Positions 14,505 to 64,000 of a DNA stretch of 64,000 nt are shown here, piece by piece. This DNA is from a bacterium. GTDB taxonomy: Bacteria > Patescibacteriota > Dojkabacteria > SC72. Both the position numbers and the translations under genes were made by a program. The notes under the pieces were generated by a model. That model was not told the origin of the DNA, ran no database searches, and was given only the letters and a program-made list of their open reading frames with translations. Where the stretch lies: the NCBI GenBank assembly GCA_021463465.1, contig JAJTYH010000003.1:3043-67042 (forward strand), in the 5' to 3' direction. How positions within the stretch are numbered: the first letter of the stretch is position 1; the number at the start of each line of letters is the position of its first letter.

Positions 14505-14536
<32 letters not shown>

Positions 14537-31628: not shown

Positions 31629-31703
<75 letters not shown>

Positions 31704-33055: not shown

Positions 33056-33063
33056 AACTTTTG

Positions 33064-33092: not shown

Positions 33093-33134
33093 CCCTATAG
33101 TATAGCCCATGCGGTTAACTTATATTGACATAGA

Positions 33135-34025: not shown

Positions 34026-34026
34026 A

Positions 34027-34464: not shown

Positions 34465-34479
34465 GACGAAGTAACAACA

Positions 34480-34743
34480 ATGGCTTACAATCCTAGTAAG
34501 AATCAAACTATAAGGAAGCACTTTCCACCTTCCATTATCAGTGAAACGCATAATAATCTAAGAAATGAAGTGAGTTCTGCCCGTATTAATAACCCAAGTT
34601 TATGCAGATTATCAGCTCTTTTTCAAAAACCAAATACAACTACTGAACAGTGGTTAAACCCTGATGGCACGATCTATACTGGCGAATTTCTTACCATTAT
34701 GGATAACGTACTAAAGCATGATTTAAATATCCTCCAAAACTGA
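34480..34743 (+). CDS. Hypothetical small protein
   Basis: 87 aa ORF in the same operon-like array. Confidence 0.35.
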   Translation: MAYNPSKNQTIRKHFPPSIISETHNNLRNEVSSARINNPSLCRLSALFQKPNTTTEQWLNPDGTIYTGEFLTIMDNVLKHDLNILQN

Positions 34744-34805
34744 TTTAAAATGAAAAGAGAGACATTCATGAAAGAATTTGCTTACTCTCTGATATACTTT
34801 ACTAA

Positions 34806-35111
34806 ATGAACATAAACGTTTCAGAAGGGACCGCTCATAAACTACCAAACGATTTAAAAAGAGACCTTTTGTCGGACAGAACTGCACTTAAAAAATGGGA
34901 AGGGTTAACACCGGTTGCACGTAATGAATGGATTTGCTGGGTTATATCAGTAAAGAAAGAAGAAACTCGTCAAAATCACATGCTTAGATTAATCTCCGAG
35001 CTTAAAGAAGGGAAACGTAGACCCTGTTGCTGGATTGGATGCATTCACAGGGATGATAAAAGAATTAGCCCTTCAGTAATGGGGATAATAAACAAAACGA
35101 ACAAGCCATAA
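34806..35111 (+). CDS. YdeI/OmdA-like (bacteriocin-protection family) domain protein
   Basis: 101 aa. The segment LTPVARNEWICWVISVKKEETRQNHMLRLISELKEGKRR resembles the C-terminal signature of the YdeI/OmpD-associated family. Confidence 0.4.
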   Translation: MNINVSEGTAHKLPNDLKRDLLSDRTALKKWEGLTPVARNEWICWVISVKKEETRQNHMLRLISELKEGKRRPCCWIGCIHRDDKRISPSVMGIINKTNKP

Positions 35112-35143: not shown

Positions 35144-35217
35144 TGGGGGAGGACGGAATCGAACCGTCGACATCGGCTTTATAAGAACCGCGCTCTAACC
35201 TTCTGAGCTACACCCCC
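35144..35217 (-). tRNA. tRNA-Ile (anticodon TAT), no encoded CCA
   Basis: Cloverleaf with D-arm gctc/gagc, anticodon stem cggtt/agccg, loop ctTATaa and T-arm gacgg/ccgtc. The acceptor stem is gggggtg/ctccccc with one U-U mismatch. Confidence 0.65.
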
Positions 35218-43945: not shown

Positions 43946-44266
43946 TTATCCGCCTAAAAAGTCGAATACGAGTTTGAGAACCCAGCTAAATATGAAAAGG
44001 AATATCAAGCCACCAATAGCCCAAGTCAGAGTACCACGTGCTTGATTAGTCTTAGCTGAATCTCCAGCAGAAATTAGCCAAATGTAACCACCGTACACTA
44101 CCATACCTGTCGCTACCAAACCTCCAATAGGTAGAATCATGTCAAAGAAAGCATCCAGAGAACCTCCAAGTTCTTCAAAGCGTGGAGGTGCAGATTGAGC
44201 ATGAACCAAACCCACAGTAAATAAGAAAACTATAATTGTAGTCAGCGCGTTTAGAACTTTCTTCAT
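43946..44266 (-). CDS. T4SS pilin-like small membrane protein (paralog 1)
   Basis: 106 aa with a signal peptide and two hydrophobic helices. The shared motif is VYGGYIWLISAGDSAKTNQARGTLTWAIGGLIF. Confidence 0.6.
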   Translation of the reverse strand: MKKVLNALTTIIVFLFTVGLVHAQSAPPRFEELGGSLDAFFDMILPIGGLVATGMVVYGGYIWLISAGDSAKTNQARGTLTWAIGGLIFLFIFSWVLKLVFDFLGG

Positions 44267-44290
44267 ATATCTATTCTAACATGTAATACA

Positions 44291-44319
44291 AAAAAAGGCA
44301 GGGTTGCCCCTGCCTTTTC
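44291..44319 (-). terminator. Strong bidirectional intrinsic terminator between pilin paralogs
   Basis: A perfect 8-bp GC stem (aggcaggg-ttgc-ccctgcct) is flanked by A7 upstream and T-run downstream. Confidence 0.65.
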
Positions 44320-44335
44320 CAATTTCAAACCGAGC

Positions 44336-44704
44336 TTATGAAACTTTAAGTAAGTTTGTAAGCACGAAGTTGACTATAAGGACTGAAACGAAACAGATTA
44401 CCAAACCAACAACGGCATAGGTAATACCCTTTGTAGCCTTCTCAACTTTACCCTCATCCCCTGCAGCCATAATATATTGGATACCACTGTAAACCAAGAT
44501 ACCAACAGCTACTAAAGCTGAAAGTGCAATCACTAAGTTTAGCGCACTCTTAATGAAACTTATAAGGTCACCACTTCCTGCACTGGAAATACCACCAACA
44601 AACTGTCCAGCACTCTGTGCAAATACAGCCGATGTAAGGTAAAGAGATGACGAAACAGCAGAAGCTGCTGCTGCAATCTTTGTCAAAGCATTTCTAACTT
44701 TCAT
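44336..44704 (-). CDS. T4SS pilin-like small membrane protein (paralog 2, followed by terminator)
   Basis: 122 aa carrying VYSGIQYIMAAGDEGKVEKATKGITYAVVGLVI. It has the same architecture as its neighbours. Confidence 0.6.
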   Translation of the reverse strand: MKVRNALTKIAAAASAVSSSLYLTSAVFAQSAGQFVGGISSAGSGDLISFIKSALNLVIALSALVAVGILVYSGIQYIMAAGDEGKVEKATKGITYAVVGLVICFVSVLIVNFVLTNLLKVS

Positions 44705-44780
44705 GTTTATGAGTATTAAATTAACACTGCTATATCAAACAAGAGTATTATATTACACATATAACGCTCTTTTCAATACC

Positions 44781-45113
44781 TTACCTCAAAACTTGTTCAA
44801 CTACAAATTTGATAATTGTTCCAGCCAAAAATACAATTAGCATACCGATTGTAGCTGCTTTGATTGTATTCTGACCCTCAACTAAGTGATCAGCTTCTCC
44901 TTGTGCTGAAATTATGATTTTATATCCACCGTAAACATATAGTGCAACTGTGACCAATGCTGAGAAAGCAATCGCTGTATTAATAAGGAAAGTAAGCCTT
45001 TCAACCGTGCCATCCAATGTCGTAAAAGCGTCTCCTCCAAAAGGGTTAGAAATACCGTACCAAGTAGCAAAAAGAATTCCTTTAGTTTTAATGTATTCCC
45101 AAAATTTTTTCAT
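44781..45113 (-). CDS. T4SS pilin-like small membrane protein (paralog 3)
   Basis: 110 aa carrying VYGGYKIIISAQGEADHLVEGQNTIKAATIGMLIV. Confidence 0.55.
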   Translation of the reverse strand: MKKFWEYIKTKGILFATWYGISNPFGGDAFTTLDGTVERLTFLINTAIAFSALVTVALYVYGGYKIIISAQGEADHLVEGQNTIKAATIGMLIVFLAGTIIKFVVEQVLR

Positions 45114-45463
45114 GGCTGAATTCCAGGTATATTAAGTGTGTTTTGAATCAAAAGTAGTATCGCAACCGAAAGAGCAATAAGGGCAAATCCTATGATGGCG
45201 TTAGTAGCCACTTCTCTTGCCTCACCAAGCTTTTCAGGATTTCCCTGACTTGTAATCATAACATATCCTGCATAACTCATTAATGCCATTGCAGCCAAAA
45301 CTCCAAGTGGTACCGATAAACTTACCAACGCATTTACCAACCCAGTAAGGTCCTGTTGTTGAGTCACGTTGTTGATTTGACCAGCAACAATTTCCCCGAG
45401 TGCATCGGCATGAACTTTACCAGTCGGAATCAAGCTAATTATCTTATTTATCAAACTCAACAT
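45110..45463 (-). CDS. T4SS pilin-like small membrane protein (paralog 4)
   Basis: 117 aa carrying SYAGYVMITSQGNPEKLGEAREVATNAIIGFALI. It overlaps paralog 3 by 4 nt. Confidence 0.55.
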   Translation of the reverse strand: MLSLINKIISLIPTGKVHADALGEIVAGQINNVTQQQDLTGLVNALVSLSVPLGVLAAMALMSYAGYVMITSQGNPEKLGEAREVATNAIIGFALIALSVAILLLIQNTLNIPGIQP

Positions 45464-49389: not shown

Positions 49390-49418
49390 TTGATTAGGAA
49401 GGACATTAAATATATAAT
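49390..49418 (+). promoter_or_regulatory. Promoter for tRNA-Ser (TTGATT-17-TATAAT)
   Basis: The -35 is at 49390-49395 and the -10 at 49413-49418. The tRNA starts 17 nt downstream. Confidence 0.45.
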
Positions 49419-49434
49419 TTGCAAGATTTTACGG

Positions 49435-49522
49435 GGAGAGGTGGCTGAGTGGCCGAAAGCGCCTCACTGCTAACGAGGTGTACCTAACGGTACCACGGGT
49501 TCGAATCCCGTCCTCTCCGCCA
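49435..49522 (+). tRNA. tRNA-Ser (anticodon GCT), long variable arm, CCA encoded
   Basis: Acceptor ggagagg/cctctcc, anticodon loop ctGCTaa, variable arm tgtacc-taac-ggtaca, T-arm, and 3' CCA. Confidence 0.85.
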
Positions 49523-49558
49523 TATATTCACGGTAGCGACAAGACCCACCCACCTTCC
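49507..49558 (+). repeat. Direct repeat copy a (tRNA-Ser 3' end plus 36-bp flank; attL-like)
   Basis: The sequence CCCGTCCTCTCCGCCATATATTCACGGTAGCGACAAGACCCACCCACCTTC is shared with copies b, c and d. Confidence 0.7.
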
Positions 49559-49687
49559 TAAGGAAGGCTCACTGGGATTGAGTTATTTCCACCCTTAAAC
49601 CATTGATTTCAAAATAATGGCCTTTGAGTTAAAATGTACCATTCTCAGAGGAGTTTTAGTGTATTCTGGTTTAGTATAAAAATATCA

Positions 49688-50074
49688 TTACGGTTTAAAG
49701 TATGCCTTTGCAATCATTTCCCTATAGGGAAATGATATTTTCATTATCTTAATCTCCTCCTCACTATACCATGAGTACTTATCTGGTAAACTCTTTGTTG
49801 GCTTAAATTTATAAAGCGGTGTGCATGCGTAAACAATAGATATTTGATTGATTTCATCAAAGTTATACGCAGCAATAACACCTAACATTTCTATCGTTAA
49901 TCCAGTGTAATTAAGTAAAAATCTTTTGTAGGCATCTTCAATTCTCTCTCTATCATTTATAGTCGAAAATGGCAGCATAAATTCGTCATTGAGCTTTTCT
50001 AATAAAATTTTATTCTCACTATTAAATAAAACTGCAATTACCTTAATTTCTTTTTTCATAATTAGATTATACAA
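49688..50074 (-). CDS. Degenerate NUDIX-fold protein (Nudix box not conserved)
   Basis: 128 aa. KVIAVLFNSENKILLEKLN...RERIEDAYKRFLLNYTGL resembles the NUDIX beta-strand and box, but lacks the REx2EE residues. Confidence 0.45.
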   Translation of the reverse strand: MYNLIMKKEIKVIAVLFNSENKILLEKLNDEFMLPFSTINDRERIEDAYKRFLLNYTGLTIEMLGVIAAYNFDEINQISIVYACTPLYKFKPTKSLPDKYSWYSEEEIKIMKISFPYREMIAKAYFKP

Positions 50075-50081
50075 CTTTTAG

Positions 50082-50139
50082 TTCCAGACCCGTATGTTCC
50101 GCCATATTTTCACGGTAGCGACAAGACCCACCCACCTTC
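50082..50139 (+). repeat. Direct repeat copy b (degenerate tRNA-Ser 3' half plus flank; att-like)
   Basis: TTCCAGACCCGTATGTTCCGCCATATTTTCACGGTAGCGACAAGACCCACCCACCTTC is about 95% identical to copy a across 42 bp. Its tRNA-like part is diverged. Confidence 0.7.
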
Positions 50140-50352
50140 TTTCAAAATCCTTCCACACTTTAAATTATATACTGGTGGAGGAAAACATCTCGAATTTCGA
50201 GTTAAATTAGTATAACTCAGTTAGAAGGAGTTACCTTTTTTTTCTTGGGCAAGTGTGATCTTCAAATCCGGTTCCTTTTCTATTCCTATCCCAAAGATTT
50301 TGTTGATAAATTAGCGAAAACATATGTACACCACCATATGATAAAATTAATA

Positions 50353-51030
50353 ATGGAAAAGATTGGGATTATAGGGATAACATCAGAAGGAGCTTCTTTA
50401 TGCTATAAAACTATTATCGCTGAATCCACAAAAACGCTAGGTGGATTTAATAATGTAGAAGTCGTACTAGTCCAGCCAAATTTTAATAATATTTTAGAAG
50501 CTCAAAAGACAAAGGATTGGAATAAAGTAGCTACGATTATTATCGATTCTGGTAAACAACTTGAAAAATTAGGAGTAACTAAAATTGTAATTCCAGCAAA
50601 TTCAATCCATTTTGCAATTAAGAAAATCCAAGCGGGACTGGATATTCCTGTGATTAACATATTAGATGTTGTAAAGGATGTTTGTATAAAGGAGAATTAT
50701 AAAAAAGCTTTGATTCTAGGAGTTGGAATTACGATGAGCGATAATCTTTACAAAGCTGTTCTAGAAAGTAATCATGTAACTTACACCCTTCCAAACGAAG
50801 ATGATTGTAATGCTCTAGATAGAATAATTTACGAAGAACTCGTTAAAGGAATTGTAAGCCCAGAATCGACAAGAAAAATCCTGAATATAATACAAAAAGG
50901 CAAGGATAACTTATGTGACGTTGCTATACTTGCTTGTACTGAACTTCCGATGGCTATAAAGAGCACTAATTCTCCTGTACCAACAATTGATACAACGAGA
51001 GAACTTGCATTAGCTTCTTTGCTAAACTAA
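50353..51030 (+). CDS. Asp/Glu/hydantoin racemase-family protein (ORF open from 50245; start taken at MEKIGIIG)
   Basis: Racemase signatures IGIIG...ATxxFY-like at the N-terminus and ...ILACTELP... for the second catalytic Cys region. Confidence 0.65.
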   Translation: MEKIGIIGITSEGASLCYKTIIAESTKTLGGFNNVEVVLVQPNFNNILEAQKTKDWNKVATIIIDSGKQLEKLGVTKIVIPANSIHFAIKKIQAGLDIPVINILDVVKDVCIKENYKKALILGVGITMSDNLYKAVLESNHVTYTLPNEDDCNALDRIIYEELVKGIVSPESTRKILNIIQKGKDNLCDVAILACTELPMAIKSTNSPVPTIDTTRELALASLLN

Positions 51031-52040
51031 TTCTTTACGAGGATTTTAAGTTCGTTTAATAAATTATCCTCAACTTCTATTTCACCAGTGGACAATACTT
51101 TTGCCATAGCATCATCACCTTTTTCGCCTGGGAGCTGAACTTTCTTAACTCCTCCAAGTGTTTTTGCATTATGTATTCTTTCAACAACCATATCCATATC
51201 TTTTTTGAATTCATTTATATCTACAAATGCTGAGGGATCAATTGCAATTACAACATTTCCCCAACCAAGTTCAGATTTAATACCGGTAACAGCGGATCTG
51301 ATAACTGGGCCTGTGAGAAGTTCAACAACAAGGTTTAATCCATATCCCTTATAATTTTTATCAAATGGTCGAATAGCTCCTTCCATTGCTTTTGCAGGAT
51401 CTGTTGTTAAATTTCCTTCTCCATCATACGCAACATCACCTGGAATACTCTGTCCAGCAGTTTTTGCTTGTACTAGACCAAACCATGCCATAGCACTTGT
51501 AGCCATATCAAAGACAACAGGTGCTTTTGTTGTTGGAAAACCATAAGCCATAGGATTTGTTCCAAACTTTGGTTCGTATGATCCAAACGGTGCAACAGTT
51601 TCCGGAGACCCAGAATATATCATTCCTACCATATCAGCTTTTGCAATTTCTCTTGCAAAGTATCCAATAGCACCTGTTGAACTAAATGTATTTGTTAAAC
51701 CTACAATTGAAATCCCAAACTCCTTTGCTCGTTCTATTGCCATTTTAATGGCCTTCTTCATTGGCACCATTCCAAAATTCTTTCCTCCATCTAATAATAC
51801 TGAGGCTTTTCTTTCTTTTAAAACTTTAATCTCAGTCGCTTCGGGACTCTTCGGAATTCCTTTCCCAATTAGTTTAACTATTCCTTGGTTATTTCCTCTC
51901 ATCTGTGCATATAGCAGAACTTCACCAATCACATTTGACTCTTCTTCTGTATACCCATATTTTAATAGTGCTTTATGCACGATTTCCTTTAATTCTGATA
52001 ACTGAATTTTCATATTTATTTTTGTTAATTTATCGACCAT
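51027..52040 (-). CDS. Ldh_2-family (malate/L-lactate/sulfolactate) dehydrogenase
   Basis: 337 aa. Length and motifs (e.g. ...HKALLKYGYTEEES..., GSPETVAPFGS, HKG-like region) are consistent with the Ldh_2 family. Confidence 0.6.
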   Translation of the reverse strand: MVDKLTKINMKIQLSELKEIVHKALLKYGYTEEESNVIGEVLLYAQMRGNNQGIVKLIGKGIPKSPEATEIKVLKERKASVLLDGGKNFGMVPMKKAIKMAIERAKEFGISIVGLTNTFSSTGAIGYFAREIAKADMVGMIYSGSPETVAPFGSYEPKFGTNPMAYGFPTTKAPVVFDMATSAMAWFGLVQAKTAGQSIPGDVAYDGEGNLTTDPAKAMEGAIRPFDKNYKGYGLNLVVELLTGPVIRSAVTGIKSELGWGNVVIAIDPSAFVDINEFKKDMDMVVERIHNAKTLGGVKKVQLPGEKGDDAMAKVLSTGEIEVEDNLLNELKILVKN

Positions 52041-52306
52041 AGTTTATCGCAATTACTCCTAAATGACGAATTTGTAATCTGCTGACCTCTTCACCTATGG
52101 TAATGAGGTTTGAACATTTTTCTTTAAAATTCCTTAACAGCTAATAATACTTTCACACGGTTGAAATCCAGCCCTCTCCTCCATAACCGCTCTACAATGA
52201 CAGGGCTCACCATCTTTAAGATTGCTTACAGGAATGTGATTCGTTACATACTAAAAAAGTAGTTCCCAAATCTAATTCTTCAATACTTAGTGGTATAATA
52301 ATCCAA

Positions 52307-52813
52307 ATGAAATATATAACCAAAGAACAATTTGAAACCATTAAGAATATTCCAAGGGCACGATTAACAGCACGATTTTTTGTATACACCGGAATAATAA
52401 TTCAAGCAGGAAACAAAATTTTACTCTGTAAACCGAAAAAATCTAAATACCTTGGTTGGCAATTACCTGGAGGAAAGGTTCTGTGGAGCGAAAAATTCAC
52501 AAAATGCATCCAAAGAGAAGTACTTGAAGAAACAGGAATGGAAGTGACATTAAAAGGGATAGTAGGTGTATATCAAAGAAAAACAACACCTGAAGATGAA
52601 GAATTTATTAGAATAATTTATTGCGCCAATACTTTTAAAAAGTTACATCGTAAGCCAATTGATCCCGAAATTGAGAAAGTCCGCTGGTTTGATATTCAGG
52701 AAGTTTTAGAAGGAAAAGTTGAAATTCAATCACTCCAAATCATTAAAGAAATAAAATACTACCTGAGAAACAAGGTTTATCCTTTAAATTTTATTAAGGC
52801 TTATAAATGGTAA
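52307..52813 (+). CDS. NUDIX hydrolase
   Basis: Canonical Nudix box GGKVLWSEKFTKCIQREVLEETGMEV. It is preceded by an extended -10 (TGgTATAAT, 52291-52299) only 7 nt from the ATG, so it is leaderless-like. Confidence 0.75.
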   Translation: MKYITKEQFETIKNIPRARLTARFFVYTGIIIQAGNKILLCKPKKSKYLGWQLPGGKVLWSEKFTKCIQREVLEETGMEVTLKGIVGVYQRKTTPEDEEFIRIIYCANTFKKLHRKPIDPEIEKVRWFDIQEVLEGKVEIQSLQIIKEIKYYLRNKVYPLNFIKAYKW

Positions 52814-52843
52814 GAGTTTCGCACATGCTTATAAAAATCTTAA

Positions 52844-52903
52844 TCTCCAGACTCGTATGTCCCTCCATATTTTTATGGTAGCAGCAAGACTCAACCCTCC
52901 GCA
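52844..52903 (+). repeat. Direct repeat copy c (diverged)
   Basis: TCCAGACTCGTATGTCCCTCCATATTTTTATGGTAGCAGCAAGACTCAACCCTCCGCA is about 75% identical to copy b. Confidence 0.6.
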
Positions 52904-52954
52904 CAAAGATTCATTAAAAAATTAAGTTAAGGCTCTATAACGTTAAGCTTCAGA

Positions 52955-53015
52955 CACATATACCCTTCGATGCTCTCACTGTAGTGACAAGGAGCATTAT
53001 CTTTCTTTCAAAACC
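52955..53015 (+). repeat. Direct repeat copy d (strongly degenerate)
   Basis: TTCAGACACATATACCCTTCGATGCTCTCACTGTAGTGACAAGGAGCATTATCTTTCTTTCAAAACC shares the blocks CAC-GTAG-GACAAG and CTTTCTTTCAAAA-CC with copy b. Confidence 0.4.
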
Positions 53016-53189
53016 TTTTGCCAATTTAAGTTAGCTTTCTCCTAGAATCACTCACTAAAAAGCAGAACCTTGATAAACGAAAATATTAGAAATCGTTTCT
53101 ACTTGTTTCAGGTGGATTGCCACAACTTGATTCGTATGAATAGACTACAAATCCAGTTTATGCCAATTCATTTTCAAACAATCTACTAG

Positions 53190-53744
53190 CTACTTCTTAA
53201 AAATATCCTCAAAAAGTTTTTCAAAGTCGGAGTATCCGGCATCAGTTGTAAAATGTCCTGCATCTTTAACAAACACATACCTCGCTTTAAAAGTCTTTGC
53301 AATTTTTTCACCGTGACTGACCGGAATATAACTATCATTACTGGATTGGTACACAACAAACTTCTTACACTGTCCTTTTATTTTTTTAAAATCAAAAGGT
53401 TTTGCAAAGAAAGTATCTAACAAGCCATTTTCCTTTGGATACCAGAGATAATCAATAAAACCGCCAACCATATAAAGAGTATCAATTTGATAATCAAAAT
53501 CAGTTAGAAGATTTAAAACAAACGATACACCTCTGGAGTGAGCAATAAAAACAGTTTCCTCATTTATTTTATCTTTGTATTTATCTAATTCCTTGTACCA
53601 CCGACTTAATTGATGACCGTCTTCACAAGGAAAATCAGGGACAACACATTGATAACCCTGCTTCTCTATCTTGCTTTTCATCCAAGGAAACCAGTGTACT
53701 TTAGATGAATCATCAGAGCCATGGATTATAAAAAAGTTTTTCAT
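53190..53744 (-). CDS. Alpha/beta serine hydrolase (YdeN/RBBP9-like esterase)
   Basis: 184 aa with IIHGSDDSS...W and FIAHSRG, a nucleophile-elbow-like motif. Confidence 0.55.
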   Translation of the reverse strand: MKNFFIIHGSDDSSKVHWFPWMKSKIEKQGYQCVVPDFPCEDGHQLSRWYKELDKYKDKINEETVFIAHSRGVSFVLNLLTDFDYQIDTLYMVGGFIDYLWYPKENGLLDTFFAKPFDFKKIKGQCKKFVVYQSSNDSYIPVSHGEKIAKTFKARYVFVKDAGHFTTDAGYSDFEKLFEDIFKK

Positions 53745-53767
53745 ATAGTTTTTAAATCGATTATACT

Positions 53768-54685
53768 CTAGTTCATTGATAATCTTTCAAGCCTAGCAAT
53801 CATTTTAGTAAATGTATCCAAATCATCAGATCTTTTAAGTCTTTCAAATGTAAGAAGAGAGTAATACGATTCTTCAACTAAAAATAAAATCTCACTCAGA
53901 ATCCTATATTTACAGTACTTTTCTAACAACGAAAGCCTCTCCCAGGCCTCTAAAAATCTTTCGAAGGTTTTCCTTGATAGAAACAGCTCAGACTCAAAAA
54001 TATCATAGAAGGGTAACGTTGAGTGAACATCATCAAAATCAATAATCCCTGCGTATAAATTATTATCCATATACACATGCCCAGGTATATCTGCATGTAC
54101 TAATCGACCAACTTCTAACTCAACTGAACTATCAATAAGTCCTTTATACTTGTTCTTTAACTTGTCAAAAATAGTAGTTTCGCCAATTTGATAGGACAAG
54201 AGCCCAACAAATGTTTCAAACTTTGAAAGAAAATAATCTTTATAATAACGATACTGACCATATAAGCTCTTACCCTCAACTCTTATATTCCCAAACCCGC
54301 TGACATCTACCCCATTTATAATGGAGAGCTGTTCTGCAATTACCTCTAATTGTTTGTTCCATTGAGATGGCGTACCTGAATCACCTTGTAGTTTATCGAT
54401 AATAAGCACGTGTTTACCGTCAAAAGCACTAAACCTATCTACAAAAGTTATTTCAGGTGTACTAACACCCTTTGCTCTTAGCTGATCAGTGATAAACTTC
54501 TGAACCAGATAATCAGAACTGTTATCATGACTAATCTTTAGATAATGGGAAGTACCGTCAATAAAGCGTAAAATAAACACATTCGAAGATACACCTTTAT
54601 TTAATACTGGGTCGATACTCTCAAGTTTGAAGCCCTTTTGGAACAGGTACCGTTTTACTTCTTCAATATCAATTTTATCAATCAC
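53768..54685 (-). CDS. Aminoglycoside/small-molecule phosphotransferase (APH-family kinase fold)
   Basis: 305 aa. The motif LVHADIPGHVYMDNNLYAGIIDFDD matches the APH catalytic loop HxDxxxxN and a DFD metal-binding motif. Confidence 0.6.
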   Translation of the reverse strand: MIDKIDIEEVKRYLFQKGFKLESIDPVLNKGVSSNVFILRFIDGTSHYLKISHDNSSDYLVQKFITDQLRAKGVSTPEITFVDRFSAFDGKHVLIIDKLQGDSGTPSQWNKQLEVIAEQLSIINGVDVSGFGNIRVEGKSLYGQYRYYKDYFLSKFETFVGLLSYQIGETTIFDKLKNKYKGLIDSSVELEVGRLVHADIPGHVYMDNNLYAGIIDFDDVHSTLPFYDIFESELFLSRKTFERFLEAWERLSLLEKYCKYRILSEILFLVEESYYSLLTFERLKRSDDLDTFTKMIARLERLSMN

Positions 54686-55348
54686 TATTATATACAGCTC
54701 TTAACTTTAAGATTTAATTATAGTTTAATAATACCTAAATATCACTTCCCAAAGAATTACAGTCTCTGGAAACAAAAGGAAAACTAGATGACATGACACA
54801 GGCATATCCAATATAGAAAGCATAATTACAACTGATAAGTAAAACTTTAAAAATAAGTGCTGTTATTTTTGATAGAGTTGGGGTAACTATCAATAGCGAG
54901 TACACGGTAATTAAATCCGTTACGTCTATTTTTCAAAAGCTAGGATTTAATATAATGAAAAATGATTAAAGTATCTCGTAGGGATAAGTTAAAACACTAA
55001 TAAGAACTACTTTCTAAACAAATCGGGCTTCAACCTTGAAGAATACTAAATACTCTCTTCTACTGGTTATTAGGATCAAGTCCATTATTCAATGAAATCA
55101 TAATGGGAATCAATAACCCCTGCTGGATACAATACAACCTCAACAGTGATTAGATGCTAAATCTTCTAAATAAATTCAACGTGATTGAGGCAAAAGAAGA
55201 TCTTACGAGATCAAAACCTAGCCCTGAACCATATCTAATAACTGTAAAAAGTTAGACTTCCAACTATGCCATGTATTGCGATTGATGATACGGCTGATTC
55301 TTGCAAACCCTTCAATTTAACGAGTTTTTAGATTTCAACATATACAAA

Positions 55349-55374
55349 AAACGCCCGGTAAAAACCGAGCGTTT
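55349..55374 (-). terminator. Intrinsic terminator downstream of RRM gene
   Basis: The minus strand reads aacgctcgg-ttttta-ccgggcgtt followed by TTTTGTAT. Confidence 0.5.
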
Positions 55375-55396
55375 CAAGTTCAAGAGTCGAAGTGAA

Positions 55397-56905: not shown

Positions 56906-59900
56906 TTATTTCTTTTTTACGATAATCCCCCGATCCACTACTATTTCTTTAGCTTTACGCTTCTTGGTGATTATACTGCTACCACCTTCGTATCTAACTG
57001 CCTTGTATCTTTCATCCATGACTCCAAGTTGATAAGTATCATTTGGCATTACAAATTGATACTGACCCTCTTTGTCTGTAACCCTTTTACCGACATATCT
57101 ATCAAACTTCATCTCTTTCAGAGTTACTGTGACACCCTCTACTGGACTGCCACTCTTTTCAACTACCATTCCAAACGACTGTTTTTTAATAGTTATGTTC
57201 TTAATTAACAACATTGAAGCAGGTAGATACAACAATACAGCGGTGAGATTAAGTGGGCTTGGGAATTTAAAGTAGGTATAGGCACCTAGGGCTAAACCAC
57301 CAAAAAATAGCGTTATATGGAAGATCTTTACGAGGATTGACGCAGAGCTCAAAAACTGTGCAAACACTTTTGAAATAGGAGAGAGAGCCTTTGGATCCAT
57401 CGGTACTACAATATTAAACATACTTTTACGCATAAAATTCACCAACTCTCCGTGGTAAACAGGCTCAAGAGGATAATCCACATGACCAGGCACAATCTTT
57501 GATGGATAAGTGTAGCCTGGTTTAACGACTAAGACCTTATACTTTCCTGGAGGGAGGCTGGCCCCAAATGTTCCAAATGCACTAGTTACATCTGTCCAAA
57601 CTAATCGCTCGCTTGTATTATAAATCCTCACTACAGCACGATTAATTGGCTTTTTGCTCACTGCATCATAAACCAAACCGTAAGGTCTACTTTTTTTAAT
57701 AAAACCGAAGAAGGAAAGTATGCTTACAAGTAATTGAATAAGGAAGTATGGAATATTTGTAAAGCCACCAGCAAATACTGCTATTCCAACAGAAACAGTT
57801 GTAGCAGTAGCGGCTGAAGCAACTACACTTAACTGAGGTTCTGACAGTTTTCCAACAGGTGTAGCATCAATAATTTTCGAAACTTTCTTCGCAGCAACAA
57901 TGGTAGCCTTAGGCGCCTTAACCAATACCGCATCTGCAACCTTTTTAACAGTTGGATTATTGATGCCTTTTACTAGCGACTCTGTAGGAATAACAATATC
58001 TTCCTCAGTCAGTTCTTCCTCAGTTGGAGTAACCTGATTTCCCTCTGTAGGCTCACTAACAGGTGACTCAACTTCAACAATCTCACCCATACCACCAGTT
58101 CCACTCAAGCCAGAAGCTACCCAGTAATCGATATTGCCAATTTTTTCTTTATGAACAACAACATCTTCACCTTCAATCTTTTTTGTCTGTGGGAACACAC
58201 CTTCAAAAATCACTCCTCCCTCACAATTACTATTAACGTCCGCAAGTGTAAGACTCCCTGGACACAGCCTGAATCTAGTTGTTTCACCAGCGGGTGTATA
58301 AAGCGTGAAGTTACCCGATAAACCCTGTTGCTGTGTAATCTTAAATACTGCCTTATTCTCCAACTTACTTGAATCCGCCCTTACGCTGCTCCAGTCTTTA
58401 TCCGAATCAAATAAGACTGGTAGATCAGCAATCAATAAATCTCCTTTAGTGACTTTCAATTCTTTTTCACCCCTTTGTGCGCCTTCAAACTGAGCTACAT
58501 TCACCTCAGGCAAATCTTTCAATACAACTGTAACACCAGCAGGAGCGCTGAATACCACCGCGTTGGTTTTTACAATAATCTTTGTACCATAAATAGTTTC
58601 TACGTTATTTCCGTTTCGTGCCTTTACCTTGAATTCAAAATCAGATGCAGAAGGCAAACCTTTTATTAAAAAACCATTATTGCCGCCAAACTCTTCATAA
58701 GTACCCCATGAAGCAGTGCTTTTAAGCGTTCCGTCTTCTTTCGAAACAAACTTCCCACTTGCAACCTCAAAAATAGCATATAAAACAAGGCTGTCGTTGC
58801 CTGGGTTTACAAGGCGAATTCGACCCCCTGTTGTTGATTGAGTGTTAAATGTAGGCTCTCCTGGTACCAAAGCATTAGTATGCGCCGTTGCCGCATCAGA
58901 ATATTCAGTTTCAACATTCTGTTGGTTTCTTGATTTCACCAAGAAAGTGTAAAATTTGCCAGGTACAAGCTGGGTCACAGTTACACCACTACTCCCACCC
59001 CACTGTGCATATGTTCCCCAAACAGGTGAATCTACCTGCGCACCAGAAAGGTTAACAAATTTATCCAATCCATCAATTTTAATACTAAAGCTACTTGTAC
59101 TAGACGAATACTGATTATCTAACTTCAATTTTATTGAGTTTGTTGAAAGGTTAGACAAACCTAATGGAACAGGGCGCGGCGCAAGGGTTGTAACTTGAAC
59201 ACCTTCAGTTTCAAACGACACAACTTCATCGCCATTTCGAACATAAACTTTGAAAGTGTAAGTTGCATTTGGAGTCAAACCCGTTACAACAACACCATTA
59301 CTCGACCCGAATTCAGAGTATGTACCCCAAATAGCGCTATCACTTAAGTTACCACCAGACTTAGGAACGTATTTAAGCGAATTTTCTCTAATACTAAACT
59401 GGGTTGCTGGAGGATTACCACCATTACTCACCTTTATCCTTACTGAGGTATCAGATACAGCTTCAAGAATTGGAAGGTCAAGAGGTGCTGCATGGGTGTA
59501 CTTTTGACCAGTTAGCGATACATCTGTTTCTACATTATCACTATTTTTTGCCTTAACTGCGAATGTATATTGAGCATTAGCAAACAAACCTACCACATTT
59601 ACCCCTGTTGTTTGACCAAAGTCACTATATGAGCTCCAGGTAGGGGTAGTTCCTAAACTTCCATTGCCTGGATTCACATACAAGCCAGAAACTGTTTCAA
59701 GTAAGGCATAACTTGTTGTTGTATTATTACTTCCAGTATTAATCTTAACGTTAATTGAGGTATTGGAGACCGCACTCACATTAGGGGCATCTGGAATGTT
59801 AGCAAATGTCGTTATAGTAGCTGTGCTAGTGAAATCGCCATTACCATTAGAATCGTAAGCAGCTACTTTACGCGTGTATGAGGTGTTAGCAGTCAGACCG

Positions 59901-62900
59901 AATTCATCACAGTATGTGATATTGCTACTTGCGCACTGTGCAACCTGTACTCCGCTCTCGTCAAAAACCCTAAAGCCTACCTCGTTGGTTAAATCCTCAG
60001 TAAATTTCCATCTGATACTTGTACTGCTTAGCACCTCTGGGGTACCCATAGTTGGAGCGCCAAGTGCCTCGTATTCGCCTGAAGCATTGCTATATGAAGT
60101 TTCTTCACCGTCGTTATTTCTAGCTTTAACCCTAAATGCATAACCAACACCAGGTTCTAAGCCAGAAGCTATAAACCCACTATCTCCACCGTAATCAGCA
60201 AACTGATCCCAAGCTTCATTCTGTACAAAGTTGCCAGATGAATTAACATAATCCCCACTATTAACTTCTTGTACAGCATATGTAACAGAAGCAGGGTTAC
60301 CGTTACTATCAAGTGTTACCCTAGCCGTTGCAGAGCTAATCCTCTGAACATCTGGAACGCCTGGGGTATTTGCAAATGTATATTTCGTAGCCGAACTTCC
60401 AAATACAGTGACCACCTGATCTCCATTTCTTGCCATAACTTGGAAGGTATAGCCATTATTAGGGGATAATCCTGATACACCTAAACCGTTAGACCCTCCC
60501 CACTGAGCATATGTAGCCCAATCTGCGCTGCCCTGTGCCACTCCCGTTTGATGGTTTATATAATTACTACCACCTACCTGAACTGAAAACTCTGTATTAG
60601 AAGGGTTATTGTTAACATCCAAAACAAGCTTTAAAACAGTAGTAGATAGTGCGCTTAAAGTCGGGGCATTTGGTGTTTTAGATCGTGTATAAATAGAAGA
60701 TCCTGTTGATAATGCCCCCTCTATATTATTTATGTTCCTAGCTTTTACCTTATATGTGTACTGAGTATTACTACTTAACCCTATCGAGTCTACCCCGCTA
60801 GTACCGCCCCACTGTGCGTAGGTCCCCCACTGTACCTCCGAAACCAACTGGCCATTAGCTGGATTAAGATATTGATCAGTTACATCCTCAAATACCGCAA
60901 ACTCAGTATTAGAAGGATTTGTTTGAGGGTTAATTTTCACATTAATAACTGTTGATGAAAGCGAGGAAACGGAAGGTGCTACACTATCAGCAGCTAAAGT
61001 AACAAATTGACCTTGTGAGGATTGCGAAGTTTCAACATTAGATTCATTTCTTGCTATAACTGTGGCGAAATACGACGTATTAGGAGTTAAACTTGTAATA
61101 GTAATACCCTCCCACTCTGCTTCGGTTTTCCATGTCGCAGGTGAAGTTACAAGACTTCCGTTCCCATCAACGTAATAAGTATCATCAATTAGTATTTTGA
61201 ACTTAGTATAAGTAGGATTGCCACCTGGATTAATCCCAATTGTTGCCGTAGTTTGGCCAGCAGTAATTGAAGGGGCATCAGGTGTAACCGACAGCGTATA
61301 TAAAGTAGAACTTGAGCTTTTAGAACTCTCAGTTCCTCCATTGTATGCACTTAGTTTTCGAGTGTACGAAGTATTTACATTCAAACTGTTTTCAACACAC
61401 TCGTAAGTATCTCCACTAACTAAATTAGCAGTACAATTAGCAATAAAAGAATCCCCTCCATCATAAAGTTTAAAACCCGTTTCATTAAGACCATTGTTAT
61501 TAAACCTCCAGGAGATGGTATCTCCATCTACAGCTACAGGGGTTAAAATATTAGGGGTTAAAAGATTAGTATAAGTTGAGATACTGCTGCTGTACGCTGT
61601 TTCAGTATTTTCAGAATTCCTAGCTTTTACCTTAAAAGTATACTGTAATCCCTCATCAAGATTATTTACCTGAAAGTTAGTGCCCCAGGAACTTGCTGTA
61701 TACCAGAACGGCGCAACTTGGAGTTGATTCGTTGTACCGTTAACGTATTTGCTACTAGACTCCTCAAAAAATGCATATTCTGTTGAGGTTGGATTACTAT
61801 TTAAATCTGAATTTAAGGCAATCTTTACATAGTTGCTACTAACTTCGGCAAAGGAAGGTACCAATGGAGTATTCGCGGCTGAATATTTATTTGAGGTTGA
61901 AGAATACGCTGTCTCAATACCGTCACCATTTCTTGTTTTTACTCTGAACGTATATTGAGTATTAGGAATTAAACCTGAAATTATTTCAGCGCCATCACTG
62001 TCCCATGATCCACTCTCATTGCAACCGGCAGTAGTACAATCAAACATTACAGCAGACTGACCTTGTCCAAGATTACTTGTACCACTTGTGAGAACTTCAA
62101 TAGATGTAGGTCCTACAGATCCATAAGAGATTGAAGGTACTGATGCTAAAGTATAAATGGTCACATTAGACGAGTATGCTGTCTCTACACCATCACCATT
62201 CCTACCTTTTACTCTAAATGTATATTGCGTATTGTCGGACAAAGATGTGGCAGTCGCATTCATTGACGTTTGCCATGCATTTAACCCTGTGTCACAACTG
62301 GTTCCTGTACAATCAAAATATATACCTGAGCTTCCTTCAGTTTCGTTTGATACCCCACTGGCTGTAAGCGGAATTTCAGATGTCGTTATTGTACCTAATG
62401 CAATCGAAGGGGTCTGGATAAGTGTATACCTACTTATACTTGATGAGTACGTTTGGCTATCGCCATTTTCATTGTATGCTTTTAACTGCCTCTGATACGA
62501 GACATTAGGAGAAAGTCCCGTTTCATCACAGTATGCAATATCAGCGCCGACACAAGTAGCTTTCAGATTGCCTAACATATCAAACACTTTTACTCCATCC
62601 TCATTATCTGCATTATCAGTAAACGTCCACCTGATTGAAGTTGTAGAAAGGGCCGAAGGTGCTGTTGCAGTAGGGGTATCAGGGACATTTAGTTCTTCTG
62701 ATCCAACTGTAAAAGATACAGAGTCCCCTGAATTATCTTTTCGTTGTGCGTATATAACCTGCAAGTAAGGGGGTAAGCTTGATTGAGAGTCAGTTATTGC
62801 GCTACAGCTATGTGTATGCGATGCAGAGGCTGTTGTTGTGACTGTTCCGTAGCTTGTAACCTTATTACTACCTGAATCAACAGATGTTGATAGATTTAAA

Positions 62901-64000
62901 GCGTGTGTATGAGTAGCGGCCCCACCCGTACCACCTGGCGTTGCATTTCCTCTAGGGAATTTACCATCAAGGGCTGTATATCTTTGCCAGCCAAGCGGAG
63001 GGAGTTGATTTACAATAATGATCGAACCTGAAGGCAATTGACCTGCACTATCTTTAGAAGCAAAGAGTAGGTCTAGGTATGGAGGCAATGTGCTTGCATT
63101 TTCAAGGCTACCTGATGGAATTGAATGGAGGTGAGCGAGCTTCACCTCGCTGCTTGAAAGCTGATAAAAGTTCGCTGCAGGTGAGGTTGACCCTGTGTAT
63201 CCAGATCCATAGTAAATAGCGATTCTTCCGTTACCTCCAGTAGCGGTATCAGCAGCACTACCTCCTGTAGCCGTTACTAGACTACTACCCAAAGTAACTG
63301 AATCACCTTTTATAAGTATTCCTCCACCAGCGCCACCTCCTCCATCTCCTCCATAAGCATTTGGGGCTGCAGTTCCAGCGCCACCATTACTTGTTACGCT
63401 TGCGCCAGAGTTAAGGCTTACCGTTGACCCATAAATCATTATAATTCCTCCGCCTCTCCCACCTGCACCACCAAATTGACCTGTACCATTACCACTTTCA
63501 CCGCCGCCACCACTACCACCACCAGATCCAAGGAATATACTACTAAGATTTGCTGGACCAACACTACCACCACCACCACCACCTCCCCCATAATCAGTAT
63601 TTCCTAAATCCTGGCCGGCACCACTACTTCCCGAAGCACCATTACCATCGGAATTCGTTGTACCATTTGACCCTGAGTTTGCACCAGTGTCGCCACCATA
63701 CCCACCTTGTCCAGCAGTCCCATATCCTCCTCCTCCTCCATCACCACCATACCCATTTTCTGAGGCTCCTGTACCAAAAGCAGCACCTCCTCCTCCACCA
63801 GTACCTCCTGACGATGAACCTGATTTAGAAGGATATGCTGTCGTATCAGAACTGCCACCACCACCTCCTCCACAAGTTCCTGAGGCATTGTTTTCTATAC
63901 CTCTATCACCACCCTGTCCTCCCCAATTAGAAGGATTACAAAGCGATCCGCCTCCCCTACCACCTCCGAAACCATCATCCCCTTCAACTGCACCTTCATG
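56906..64000 (-). CDS. Giant surface protein, partial (N-terminus beyond window end): Gly-rich region, tail-collar-like motifs, ~14 FN3/Ig-like repeats, C-terminal TM helices plus CarboxypepD_reg-like domains
   Basis: The frame is open from 64000 to the stop at 56906-56908 (>2364 codons). HTH and PPY motifs are present (GGAATHTHALNL, SHTHSCS, LPPYLDLLF, LPPYLQVIYAQRK). Repeats of ~95 aa end ...YTF.VKARN...ETAYSS..YT. Near the C-terminus there are 2-4 TM helices and two transthyretin-like domains. Confidence 0.85.
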   Translation of the reverse strand, partial: HEGAVEGDDGFGGGRGGGSLCNPSNWGGQGGDRGIENNASGTCGGGGGGSSDTTAYPSKSGSSSGGTGGGGGAAFGTGASENGYGGDGGGGGYGTAGQGGYGGDTGANSGSNGTTNSDGNGASGSSGAGQDLGNTDYGGGGGGGGSVGPANLSSIFLGSGGGSGGGGESGNGTGQFGGAGGRGGGIIMIYGSTVSLNSGASVTSNGGAGTAAPNAYGGDGGGGAGGGILIKGDSVTLGSSLVTATGGSAADTATGGNGRIAIYYGSGYTGSTSPAANFYQLSSSEVKLAHLHSIPSGSLENASTLPPYLDLLFASKDSAGQLPSGSIIIVNQLPPLGWQRYTALDGKFPRGNATPGGTGGAATHTHALNLSTSVDSGSNKVTSYGTVTTTASASHTHSCSAITDSQSSLPPYLQVIYAQRKDNSGDSVSFTVGSEELNVPDTPTATAPSALSTTSIRWTFTDNADNEDGVKVFDMLGNLKATCVGADIAYCDETGLSPNVSYQRQLKAYNENGDSQTYSSSISRYTLIQTPSIALGTITTSEIPLTASGVSNETEGSSGIYFDCTGTSCDTGLNAWQTSMNATATSLSDNTQYTFRVKGRNGDGVETAYSSNVTIYTLASVPSISYGSVGPTSIEVLTSGTSNLGQGQSAVMFDCTTAGCNESGSWDSDGAEIISGLIPNTQYTFRVKTRNGDGIETAYSSTSNKYSAANTPLVPSFAEVSSNYVKIALNSDLNSNPTSTEYAFFEESSSKYVNGTTNQLQVAPFWYTASSWGTNFQVNNLDEGLQYTFKVKARNSENTETAYSSSISTYTNLLTPNILTPVAVDGDTISWRFNNNGLNETGFKLYDGGDSFIANCTANLVSGDTYECVENSLNVNTSYTRKLSAYNGGTESSKSSSSTLYTLSVTPDAPSITAGQTTATIGINPGGNPTYTKFKILIDDTYYVDGNGSLVTSPATWKTEAEWEGITITSLTPNTSYFATVIARNESNVETSQSSQGQFVTLAADSVAPSVSSLSSTVINVKINPQTNPSNTEFAVFEDVTDQYLNPANGQLVSEVQWGTYAQWGGTSGVDSIGLSSNTQYTYKVKARNINNIEGALSTGSSIYTRSKTPNAPTLSALSTTVLKLVLDVNNNPSNTEFSVQVGGSNYINHQTGVAQGSADWATYAQWGGSNGLGVSGLSPNNGYTFQVMARNGDQVVTVFGSSATKYTFANTPGVPDVQRISSATARVTLDSNGNPASVTYAVQEVNSGDYVNSSGNFVQNEAWDQFADYGGDSGFIASGLEPGVGYAFRVKARNNDGEETSYSNASGEYEALGAPTMGTPEVLSSTSIRWKFTEDLTNEVGFRVFDESGVQVAQCASSNITYCDEFGLTANTSYTRKVAAYDSNGNGDFTSTATITTFANIPDAPNVSAVSNTSINVKINTGSNNTTTSYALLETVSGLYVNPGNGSLGTTPTWSSYSDFGQTTGVNVVGLFANAQYTFAVKAKNSDNVETDVSLTGQKYTHAAPLDLPILEAVSDTSVRIKVSNGGNPPATQFSIRENSLKYVPKSGGNLSDSAIWGTYSEFGSSNGVVVTGLTPNATYTFKVYVRNGDEVVSFETEGVQVTTLAPRPVPLGLSNLSTNSIKLKLDNQYSSSTSSFSIKIDGLDKFVNLSGAQVDSPVWGTYAQWGGSSGVTVTQLVPGKFYTFLVKSRNQQNVETEYSDAATAHTNALVPGEPTFNTQSTTGGRIRLVNPGNDSLVLYAIFEVASGKFVSKEDGTLKSTASWGTYEEFGGNNGFLIKGLPSASDFEFKVKARNGNNVETIYGTKIIVKTNAVVFSAPAGVTVVLKDLPEVNVAQFEGAQRGEKELKVTKGDLLIADLPVLFDSDKDWSSVRADSSKLENKAVFKITQQQGLSGNFTLYTPAGETTRFRLCPGSLTLADVNSNCEGGVIFEGVFPQTKKIEGEDVVVHKEKIGNIDYWVASGLSGTGGMGEIVEVESPVSEPTEGNQVTPTEEELTEEDIVIPTESLVKGINNPTVKKVADAVLVKAPKATIVAAKKVSKIIDATPVGKLSEPQLSVVASAATATTVSVGIAVFAGGFTNIPYFLIQLLVSILSFFGFIKKSRPYGLVYDAVSKKPINRAVVRIYNTSERLVWTDVTSAFGTFGASLPPGKYKVLVVKPGYTYPSKIVPGHVDYPLEPVYHGELVNFMRKSMFNIVVPMDPKALSPISKVFAQFLSSASILVKIFHITLFFGGLALGAYTYFKFPSPLNLTAVLLYLPASMLLIKNITIKKQSFGMVVEKSGSPVEGVTVTLKEMKFDRYVGKRVTDKEGQYQFVMPNDTYQLGVMDERYKAVRYEGGSSIITKKRKAKEIVVDRGIIVKKK

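Follow-up and report, generated by a model that had tools for sequence, protein, structure and literature searches.

A tRNA-Ser-anchored array of small integrase-less units in a Dojkabacteria bacterium, probably built by serial site-specific integration

How does a run of small genes with no recombinase among them come to be parceled out between copies of one short repeat, directly behind a tRNA gene? The question is raised by a tRNA-Ser(GCT) locus in a 64-kb stretch of DNA from a bacterium of the Dojkabacteria (WS6), within the Candidate Phyla Radiation (CPR; contig JAJTYH010000003.1). This whole stretch is called the window here, and all positions follow its numbering. We consider it likely that integrated mobile units are stacked here behind the tRNA gene that anchors them, and that serial site-specific integration has left integrase-less cassettes, with a large serine recombinase (LSR) as the most likely enzyme. 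The identical locus is also present in an NCBI metagenome-assembled genome (MAG; GCA_020853275.1, contig JADYZE010000062.1, locus L010) and in three Logan assemblies.

The intact tRNA-Ser(GCT) gene (49435–49522, plus strand; ARAGORN; Rfam tRNA model, 57.6 bits) forms the proximal boundary of the array. A repeat search of the window returned one dominant family of direct repeats, whose members begin at 49499 (a), 50081 (b), 52160 (x), and 52844 (c); an ungapped scan places a further copy, d, in register at 52947. All five copies have the same orientation as the tRNA gene, and successive starts are 582, 2079, 684, and 103 nt apart. The initial annotation of this DNA had described four tandem repeats behind the tRNA gene; the array is confirmed, with copy x as the one that had been overlooked. 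Over 59 nt, ungapped identity amounts to 51 positions between a and b, 44 between b and c, 36 between b and d, and 37 between a and x, the last pair being 63% identical in the repeat search. The same scan of the rest of the window, on both strands, reached at most 29 of 59 positions with a or b as query. With c as query, a single 33/59 match was found at 31244 on the minus strand; it lies inside an open reading frame (ORF) and was taken as chance rather than as a sixth copy.

Independent support comes from a profile built on 27 copies, all from other genomes and with the window copies left out, which scores a, b, and c with E values of 3e-17, 1e-17, and 4e-9, respectively. A 26-nt core of the flank, with up to three mismatches allowed, occurs only at a and b, where shuffled sequences lead one to expect none. 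Copies x and d draw their support from similarity within the window, common orientation, and intergenic position. Pattern and profile searches of the window yielded no copies beyond this locus. A dispersed repeat of the repetitive extragenic palindrome (REP) or miniature inverted-repeat transposable element (MITE) kind, the first of which the initial annotation had itself raised, does not fit: the window copies all lie here in one orientation, and copies elsewhere form tRNA-anchored arrays. The repeat family is real.

The copies share a two-part anatomy, in which a 25-nt left half ending in CCA is followed by a right half (TATWTTCACGGTAGCGACAAGACCC). At site a (49498–49547, plus strand; attL-type), the left half (GGTTCGAATCCCGTCCTCTCCGCCA) is the genuine T-loop and acceptor of the tRNA, designated T. 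It comprises the last 25 nt of the gene, from T-loop to CCA (49498–49522), where 16 nt had been proposed, and is joined to the right half TATATTCACGGTAGCGACAAGACCC. The left halves of b, c, and d instead begin with CCAGACYCGTATGTYCC and differ from tRNA-Ser; this pseudo-tRNA half is designated P. Site b (50080–50129, plus strand; attR-type) consists of a P half (AGTTCCAGACCCGTATGTTCCGCCA) and the right half TATTTTCACGGTAGCGACAAGACCC. Beyond the right half, a and b stay identical for a further 10 nt, to 49557 and 50139, respectively; over the flank as a whole they agree at 34 of 35 nt, in place of the ~95% over 42 bp first reported. Site c (52843–52892, plus strand) has a P-type half (TCTCCAGACTCGTATGTCCCTCCA) and the right half TATTTTTATGGTAGCAGCAAGACTC. 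Site d (52946–52995, plus strand) is a degenerate P-type copy, whose right flank, by direct reading of the sequence, resembles that of b (CTTTCAAAAYC...TTTAARTTA). Site x (52159–52208, plus strand) combines a genuine-type tRNA-Ser 3' fragment (GGTTGAAATCCAGCCCTCTCCTCCA) with a degenerate right half.

The P segment of copy b (24–25 nt, TTCCAGACCCGTATGTTCCGCCA) is identical at 24 of 24 positions to that of the corresponding copy in the relative L011 and at 23 of 24 to that in L018, and by our own count it is 80% identical to the 3' end of tRNA-Asp and 68–72% identical to that of tRNA-Ser. Because P is nearly invariant across genomes whose endonuclease IV (Nfo) proteins are 66–67% identical to that of the window, and because it recurs in arrays at tRNA-Asp, it is a conserved half-site borne by the element rather than the decayed duplicate of a tRNA end. 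The gradient of decay away from the tRNA that had been proposed therefore does not hold for copy b. To the right of CCA, conservation ends after 18–25 nt in the L011 b copy and in both L018 copies, which delimits the essential right half. Conservation in these copies covers 25 nt on the left and 18–25 nt on the right, and the candidate crossover interval, TCCGCCATAT, includes the center.

A longer module of ~125 nt (R module; 49523–49645, plus strand) lies to the right of CCA and is conserved in L011 as well as in copies from the tRNA-Asp arrays. At copy a its landmarks are ...AAGACCCACCCAC..., a hairpin (CCTTCC-TAA-GGAAGG), and GGGATTGAGTTATTT; in other genomes they are GGTTGCKACAAGACCCGTCCACTAT, a hairpin whose sequence varies, GGGGATTGAGTTATTT, and GGCCTGGTGGATGAAAA, which are also found at window copy a and in L011. 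In L018, L017, and L097 the tRNA is not followed by the module, which is therefore element-borne and not a feature of the host. An Rfam search of the module gave no family except tRNA, and RNAalifold predicted 0 or 12 pairs with zero compensatory change. A host small RNA was rejected on these grounds, namely its absence from the three relatives, the lack of an Rfam match, and the lack of covariation. Two shorter signals accompany the sites. The motif CTGTCTCTTTTGTCTCA occurs 7–45 nt upstream of many copies elsewhere and is absent from the window copies, and the box GGTNGCNNCAAGMCCCRYC is restricted to the site register in 340 kb of collected sequence. In copies a and b, GACC stands at +21 past the tRNA end, in the register seen at tRNAs close to recombinases, as discussed below. 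The CCA triplet was considered as a sign of an element-supplied 3' end, and the other tRNAs of the window are mixed in this respect and uninformative.

The sites bound four units. Cassette 1 (cargo 49558–50079, minus strand) holds an ORF of 123–128 amino acids (49688–50059/50074) that is weakly related to NUDIX hydrolases (Pfam NUDIX, 18.2 bits, under the 21.1 cut-off), in keeping with its first description as a degenerate NUDIX-like ORF; it is 23% identical to the canonical NUDIX protein of the array. An exact look-up of the cassette 1 protein retrieved only the NCBI MAG contig and is uninformative on the Logan samples. Cassette 2 (cargo 50140–52158) encodes an amino-acid racemase (50353–51030, plus strand; Asp_Glu_race) and an Ldh_2-family dehydrogenase (51027–52040, minus strand), as identified by Pfam and NCBIfam, which may form a two-gene metabolic unit. 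These overlapping genes (50353–52040) weakly resemble those for cysteate racemase (CuyB) and L-sulfolactate dehydrogenase, with scores far under the NCBIfam cut-offs. Cassette 3 (cargo 52307–52813, plus strand) contains a canonical NUDIX hydrolase of 168 amino acids (Pfam NUDIX, 69 bits). Cassettes 2 and 3 had been taken as a single 2.7-kb cassette; its gene content was correctly given, and site x, between the Ldh_2 and NUDIX genes, splits it in two. The fourth unit, the interval between c and d, is empty, with no ORF. The att-like sites thus flank only the NUDIX-like, racemase, Ldh_2, and NUDIX genes, which run in the order −, +, −, + along the array, with no recombinase or transfer genes. 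G+C content is ~0.33 over 50–55 kb as compared with ~0.40 in the flanks, and is 0.33–0.37 in the cassette 2 region.

Whether these units came and went at the repeats can be judged from relatives, since tRNA-Ser(GCT) adjoins nfo in all Dojkabacteria relatives examined and the locus can therefore be compared between genomes. The closest relatives of the flanking Nfo in the genome collection are all from Dojkabacteria MAGs. One comparison is with a Logan contig (L015) whose Nfo is 98% identical. The 582-bp unit from a to b is missing from it, and the break coincides exactly with the repeat: the order is tRNA...CCGCCATATTTTCACGG...CCACCTTC|TTTCAATATCC...racemase, and the junction reads tRNA...CCTCTCCGCCATATTTTCACGGTAGCGACAAGACCCACCCACCTTC|TTTCAATATCCTTCC..., continuing into the racemase gene. 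A variant at +4 distinguishes the two arrangements. In L015 a T at this position is linked to the tRNA; in the window, site a carries A there and site b carries T. The k-mer joining the +4 T to the tRNA is not found in the window, and L015 is therefore a true haplotype and did not arise from the assembler jumping by way of the one 31-mer in common. If an insertion made the difference between L015 and the window, the crossover would have fallen within TCCGCCATAT.

More distant relatives carry other cargo at the same place. L011 (UBA2022; Nfo 66% identical) has tRNA-Ser, the same right half, ~110 nt of common downstream sequence, a 174-amino acid ORF, and then GGGTTCCAGACCCGTATGTTCCGCCATATATTCACGGTAGCGAC. 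L018 (GCA_016182915.1; Nfo 67% identical) has tRNA-Ser, the right half, a 224-amino acid ORF on the opposite strand, GGGTTCAAGACCCGTATGTTCCGCCATATGTTCACGGTAGCGACAAGA, and a NUDIX gene. The latter was compared with the NUDIX gene of the window as possible cargo common to several genomes, and the two are only remotely related. No site follows tRNA-Ser in L017 (Nfo 69% identical), L097 (73%), or L012/L013 (51–52%), which have unrelated sequence there. Conservation of P, difference in cargo, and patchy occurrence together are what the conserved ends of a family of mobile elements show. The proposal of serial site-specific integration at the tRNA, made in the initial annotation along with the suggestion to compare this locus among relatives, is supported by the exact absence of unit 1 from L015 and by the variable content or bare tRNA-Ser of the others. 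Separately, Logan contigs from several Dojkabacteria populations (L001, L014, L030, and L096) end either at the 3' end of tRNA-Ser or at the core of the site, or within a few bases of these. Such breaks, the sole hint of an excised circle or of an unoccupied site inside one population, are consistent with repeats or with population heterogeneity at exactly this point.

The site family extends beyond tRNA-Ser. When JGI metagenomes were scanned with the P pattern, eight loci were identified, most of which contain several co-oriented copies 0.7–7.7 kb apart (mostly ~0.7–2 kb); the intervals typically hold one to three ORFs. The arrays in L020 and L023 begin at tRNA-Asp(GTC). In some copies P is followed by unrelated DNA (L021, L023:1313, L026, and L027), as an attR junction with non-element DNA would be expected to look. 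The cargo of these arrays includes NUDIX, nucleoside deoxyribosyltransferase, and transglutaminase-like proteins as well as unknowns, and some units comprise two or three genes or whole prophage-like elements. One unit of the tRNA-Asp array in L023 (3609–6310) contains a 430-amino acid ORF behind a T-box leader (5934–6213; 80.7 bits, under the gathering score of 93) along with a tRNA-Tyr gene (5807–5890). The exact core patterns CACGGTAGCGACAAGACCCACC and CCGCCATATWTTCACGGTAGCGAC had no matches in IMG/VR or the JGI metagenomes, and the P-half pattern had none in IMG/VR. A blastn search of the module against GenBank phages returned generic tRNA-Ser ends only, and a search of the literature for such islands in Patescibacteria yielded nothing relevant.

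Which enzyme could have acted at these sites is suggested by larger elements that carry them. L021 is prophage-like (terminase, ParB-methylase, SMODS) and has at one end a P half, ...CTGTCTCTTTTGTCTCATTTTAGGGTCCAGACCCGTATGTCCCGCCATAT; at its other end, which is the contig edge, lies an N-terminal fragment of a serine recombinase with a Resolvase domain, whose homologues also have Recombinase and zinc-ribbon domains. Further loci, namely L028, L029, and those from IMG/VR, were collected by similarity to the recombinase protein alone. L028 consists of tRNA-Asp, an in-register GGTCGCTTCAAGCCCCGTC, a Shedu gene, and a recombinase gene pointing at the tRNA, and L029 has the same layout at tRNA-Ser(CGA). 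A site profile constructed without these two loci finds both through the box (E = 2e-4 and 3e-4); bare sites are not matched. In L033, tRNA-Ser(GCT), which is also the target in the window, is followed by the same box in ...CTTGGTTGCTCCAAGACCCACC..., a 259-amino acid ORF, an intact 454-amino acid recombinase (Resolvase, Recombinase, and Zn_ribbon_recom domains) 0.8 kb from the tRNA, and terminase-like, ParB-methylase, and type I restriction-modification genes.

The association holds more widely. Scanning IMG/VR with an alignment of the catalytic domain gave 64 loci containing 21 tRNAs, all but one of which (20/21) are encoded on the other strand from the recombinase. Of these 20, 18 lie 1.4–10.4 kb past the recombinase start, including 15 that are the first encountered, at 1.4–6 kb. 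The recombinase-side targets are tRNAs for Ser, Gln, Asp, Trp, Glu, and Asn. GACC occurs at +18 to +24 past the tRNA end in 12 of 17 recombinase-proximal tRNAs (those of L028 and L029 and the 15 from IMG/VR) as compared with 1 of 19 controls (Fisher p = 6e-5). A clade of LSRs is systematically tied to tRNA 3' ends that bear the box of the right half. A scan of IMG/VR for close relatives with the C-terminal half of the L028 recombinase found none. The recombinase genes of the clade are often split or truncated, as in L028 (2520–3877; 177 + 292 amino acids) and L029 (10001–11292; 289 + 127 amino acids), and the best 120 database matches to a clade recombinase are all 143–336 amino acids in length, many of them on short contigs. 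The enzyme behind the stack in the window is most likely an LSR encoded elsewhere, belonging to the clade found in these full-size prophage-like relatives.

These observations suggest the following mechanism. Each repeat would be a compact attachment site of ~50 bp centered on the tRNA 3' end. The site of the element would consist of P and the right half, and the target of the T half of the tRNA and the adjacent right sequence. A crossover at or near CCA|TAT, within TCCGCCATAT, would preserve the tRNA sequence and produce two junctions, one joining the tRNA to the left end of the element (site a) and the other joining the P half of the element to the former flank (site b). The tRNA-proximal junction would again offer T and a right half of the family type, so that newcomers would insert there and older units would move outward. 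Sites b, x, c, and d would then mark four events, with the c–d interval being a unit stripped of its cargo. The present units could be satellites mobilized in trans or relics of larger elements; among the options listed in the initial annotation, a stack of islets and an element mobilized in trans fit best.

Several points weigh against this account. The window contains no serine recombinase, and neither the array, as had been noted at the outset, nor the DNA beside it encodes any kind of recombinase; what ties the sites to LSRs is association in other lineages. Canonically, an attL-type site is not used again as a target by a serine integrase, and serial insertion would need a relaxed choice of sites, as in CcrAB. 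Inverted symmetry of the half-sites is weak: the outer GGTTC...GACCC symmetry holds at 3–5 of 5 positions in copies with a full right half, and 4 of 5 is reached by only 11 of 34. The model accounts neither for conservation over ~125 nt to the right of CCA, which is far more than a half-site needs, nor for the upstream CTGTCTCTTTTGTCTCA motif. Genuine-type tRNA fragments in internal positions (x, L025:3637, and L032:14445-14330) cannot come from a crossover at CCA|TAT, and may be the left halves of the sites of other elements. The external profile detects neither x nor d. The L015 state could equally be explained by homologous deletion between the 41-bp repeats at a and b, and an orthologue of the racemase is present in the L011 island without flanking sites.

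Serial integration by an LSR leaves room for different views of the small units. The strongest competing view is that they are mobile in their own right, that is, integron-like cassettes that a recombinase encoded in trans captures and excises singly at the tRNA-proximal site. We regard this as doubtful. In its favor, a conserved left end, one ORF, and a conserved right end recur at a spacing of 0.6–1.4 kb in the window, L011, L018, L020, L022–L025, and L027; both ends are intact in three genomes whose cargo at this position differs; and unit 1 is polymorphic. Internal junctions remake P plus a right half and the tRNA-proximal junction remakes T plus a right half, so every unit is flanked by apparent substrate sites, and an integrase alone could shuffle units. 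In its fullest form, this would be a CPR parallel to integrons, with the tRNA 3' end as the primary site, the ~50–170 nt of P and right-hand module in the role of attC, and an LSR encoded elsewhere; such a parallel is conceivable but improbable. The comparison with integrons, which had been among the first suggestions for this locus, breaks down in detail. There is no integrase of the intI type, as the sole tyrosine recombinase of the window scores 59 bits with integron-integrase models, whose cut-off is 265. The sites are not attC-like hairpins, their folds as single-stranded DNA being no better than those of shuffled sequences (z from −1.3 to +1.2), and cassette genes point in both directions. 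Some units have two or three genes or are entire prophage-like elements, neither circular forms nor duplicated cassettes were seen, and deletion relics of larger elements would leave att sites just the same.

A second competing view retains integration but assigns it to a tyrosine recombinase acting in trans, either the XerD-like protein of the window or another, in the manner of integrative mobile elements exploiting Xer (IMEX) or of pdif modules. Integration at tRNA 3' ends is classically the work of tyrosine recombinases, and the gene in question (33135–34025, plus strand) encodes the sole recombinase in the window. Likewise, a conserved span of up to ~170–200 nt with CTGTCTCTTTTGTCTCA upstream resembles a lambda-type attP, with its arm sites, more closely than it does the minimal site of a serine integrase. 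However, the protein is of a generic Xer type (best matches XerC, XerD, and XerA, each under its cut-off), and its gene is ~15 kb away from the array and unlinked to the sites. The sites have no dif-like 11-6/8-11 symmetry, and the best complementarity of dif-like arms, 5–7 of 11, is reached by 203–500 of 500 shuffles. A phmmer search found no Xer-like protein in the array loci and full-size elements examined, and the full-size elements that bear the sites encode serine recombinases. The XerD-like protein, which the initial annotation had put forward as a candidate, is unlikely to be the agent, and a tyrosine recombinase of any kind seems very improbable. The Xer-like gene lies in a block of plus-strand genes (32279–35111) between tRNA-Met (31629–31703) and a tRNA-Ile gene; the block has no Pfam matches and coincides with a shift in AT skew.

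Finally, the repeats could be a functional module (a small RNA, a terminator, or a processing signal of a tRNA-like kind, for example) that local duplication has spread, with homologous recombination between copies accounting for the polymorphism. This might be suggested by the ~125 nt that stay conserved between lineages, in which a hairpin varies in sequence and CCAC...GTGG may pair over a long range, by the orientation of every copy, which is that of the tRNA, and by the ability of homologous deletion to yield the L015 state; but this is scarcely credible given that the module has no Rfam family, consensus structure, or compensatory change, that many copies are a P half followed by unrelated DNA (L021, L023:1313, L026, and L027), that copies border low-GC units of unrelated cargo, that the same half-site terminates a prophage-like element, and that occurrence is patchy in close relatives.

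Beyond site d, the rest of the low-GC variable island (52996–55396; G+C ~0.33) contains no extra copies of the site. It encodes a Ser_hydrolase protein (53190–53744, minus strand) and an APH-like protein (53768–54685, minus strand), both identified by Pfam. The following ~700 bp (54686–55396) have no ORF of at least 50 amino acids save a doubtful 56-amino acid ORF starting with GTG (54735–54905). The island ends at a conserved RRM gene, and synteny with relatives returns at the RRM gene, SdpI, and a giant protein. The last of these (56906–63439+, minus strand) is of a surface type, with DUF2341, Laminin_G_3, and fn3 repeats, is 3474 amino acids in length in Logan contigs, and constitutes the conserved far border of the variable region.

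Other features of the window were observed in passing. The 23S rRNA gene (14125–18057, minus strand), part of a bacterial rRNA operon, is 3933 nt long as compared with a 2925-nt model, and carries a low-GC insertion of ~1 kb that encodes a LAGLIDADG endonuclease (ORF 15235–15921, minus strand). The tRNA-Ile gene beside the Xer-like block (35144–35217, minus strand) has the anticodon TAT. This anticodon is unusual in bacteria, in which AUA is normally decoded by a modified CAT anticodon. Several small T4SS_pilin-like genes, conserved in relatives, are located between smpB and a UvrD-like helicase gene (43946–45463), and an 847-amino acid ORF (35257–37800) has the look of a VirB4-type ATPase, as judged by eye from its sequence.

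If the account of serial integration by an LSR is correct, it offers a concrete and testable route of accessory-gene exchange in CPR bacteria, which have tiny genomes and few recognized mobile elements. The cargo across the family includes NUDIX hydrolases, nucleotide-salvage enzymes, Shedu, SMODS, and restriction-modification genes. With sites this short and so precisely bounded, pairs of recombinase and site are directly testable, and such pairs might serve as tools. Interest would be higher still if single-gene units proved to be independently mobile cassettes.

Among known systems, the closest description is, in our analysis, that of the ssrA islands of Dehalococcoides. There, islands lie in tandem between repeats of the ssrA 3' end, each repeat with a conserved non-aligning motif upstream; a serine recombinase lies on the reverse strand beside attL along with ParB and a Mom homologue, and 15 islands without an integration module have been read as cis-mobilizable (PMC3146451). 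As in that system (McMurdie et al. 2011), the locus in the window has tandem units behind one tRNA-like gene and direct repeats of its 3' end. The upstream non-aligning motif resembles the P half, and the set of recombinase, ParB, and DNA-modification gene resembles L021, L028, L029, and L033. An integrase beside attL, absent from the window array, is present in the full-size L028, L029, and L033. The two systems differ in that a true tRNA is targeted here (Ser-GCT in the window and, in relatives, Asp, Gln, Trp, and others), with a probable crossover at the extreme 3' end (CCA|TAT) as opposed to the T-loop. Units here are far smaller, often a single gene of 0.6–1 kb, and the conserved right module of ~125 nt and the CPR host likewise set the locus apart.

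Similarities to other systems are less extensive. The tycheposons of Prochlorococcus form islands that grow at tRNAs by successive integrations, with older elements being pushed inward, and 910 of 937 elements carry tyrosine recombinases and replication modules (10.1101/2020.12.28.424599). Scattered partial tRNA repeats, degenerate remnants, and a streamlined host genome are shared with the locus described here. Unlike tycheposons, however, the array has no integrase, and the associated enzymes are LSRs; moreover, its repeat combines a conserved element-borne look-alike with a non-tRNA half, whereas the tycheposon repeat is simply a partial tRNA. Arrays also arise in streptococci by accretion of integrative elements, both conjugative (ICEs) and mobilizable (IMEs), when a new element enters a flanking att site, and the resulting cis-mobilizable elements (CIMEs) are, like the units here, flanked by att sites and devoid of integration or transfer genes (PMC5704250; for the concept, also PMC3146451). 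A CIME is defined by its cognate ICE, and its mobilization has been experimentally shown, whereas for the window units a cognate element and mobilization are things we infer.

Two more distant parallels concern stacking and order. Tandem stacking at one chromosomal site by serine-recombinase elements is shared with the staphylococcal cassette chromosome mec (SCCmec) composites at orfX, in which CcrAB are LSRs and the tandem units have short direct repeats, some lacking ccr. The target of SCCmec is the 3' end of a protein-coding gene, and its elements are tens of kilobases in length. As in integrons, small cassettes are ordered, each ending in a conserved site with the newest by a fixed primary site; unlike in integrons, there is no intI, attC hairpin, or common cassette orientation, and the primary site is a tRNA 3' end.

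Islands anchored at tRNAs by serial integration are well known, and the bare architecture of the locus is unsurprising. To our knowledge, tRNA 3' ends are normally the domain of tyrosine integrases, and the systematic orientation of the associated LSRs against tRNA 3' ends is new. Also new in comparison with the systems above are the unusually small units without integrase and the two-part site, with non-tRNA parts that stay conserved between divergent Dojkabacteria and between two tRNA targets.

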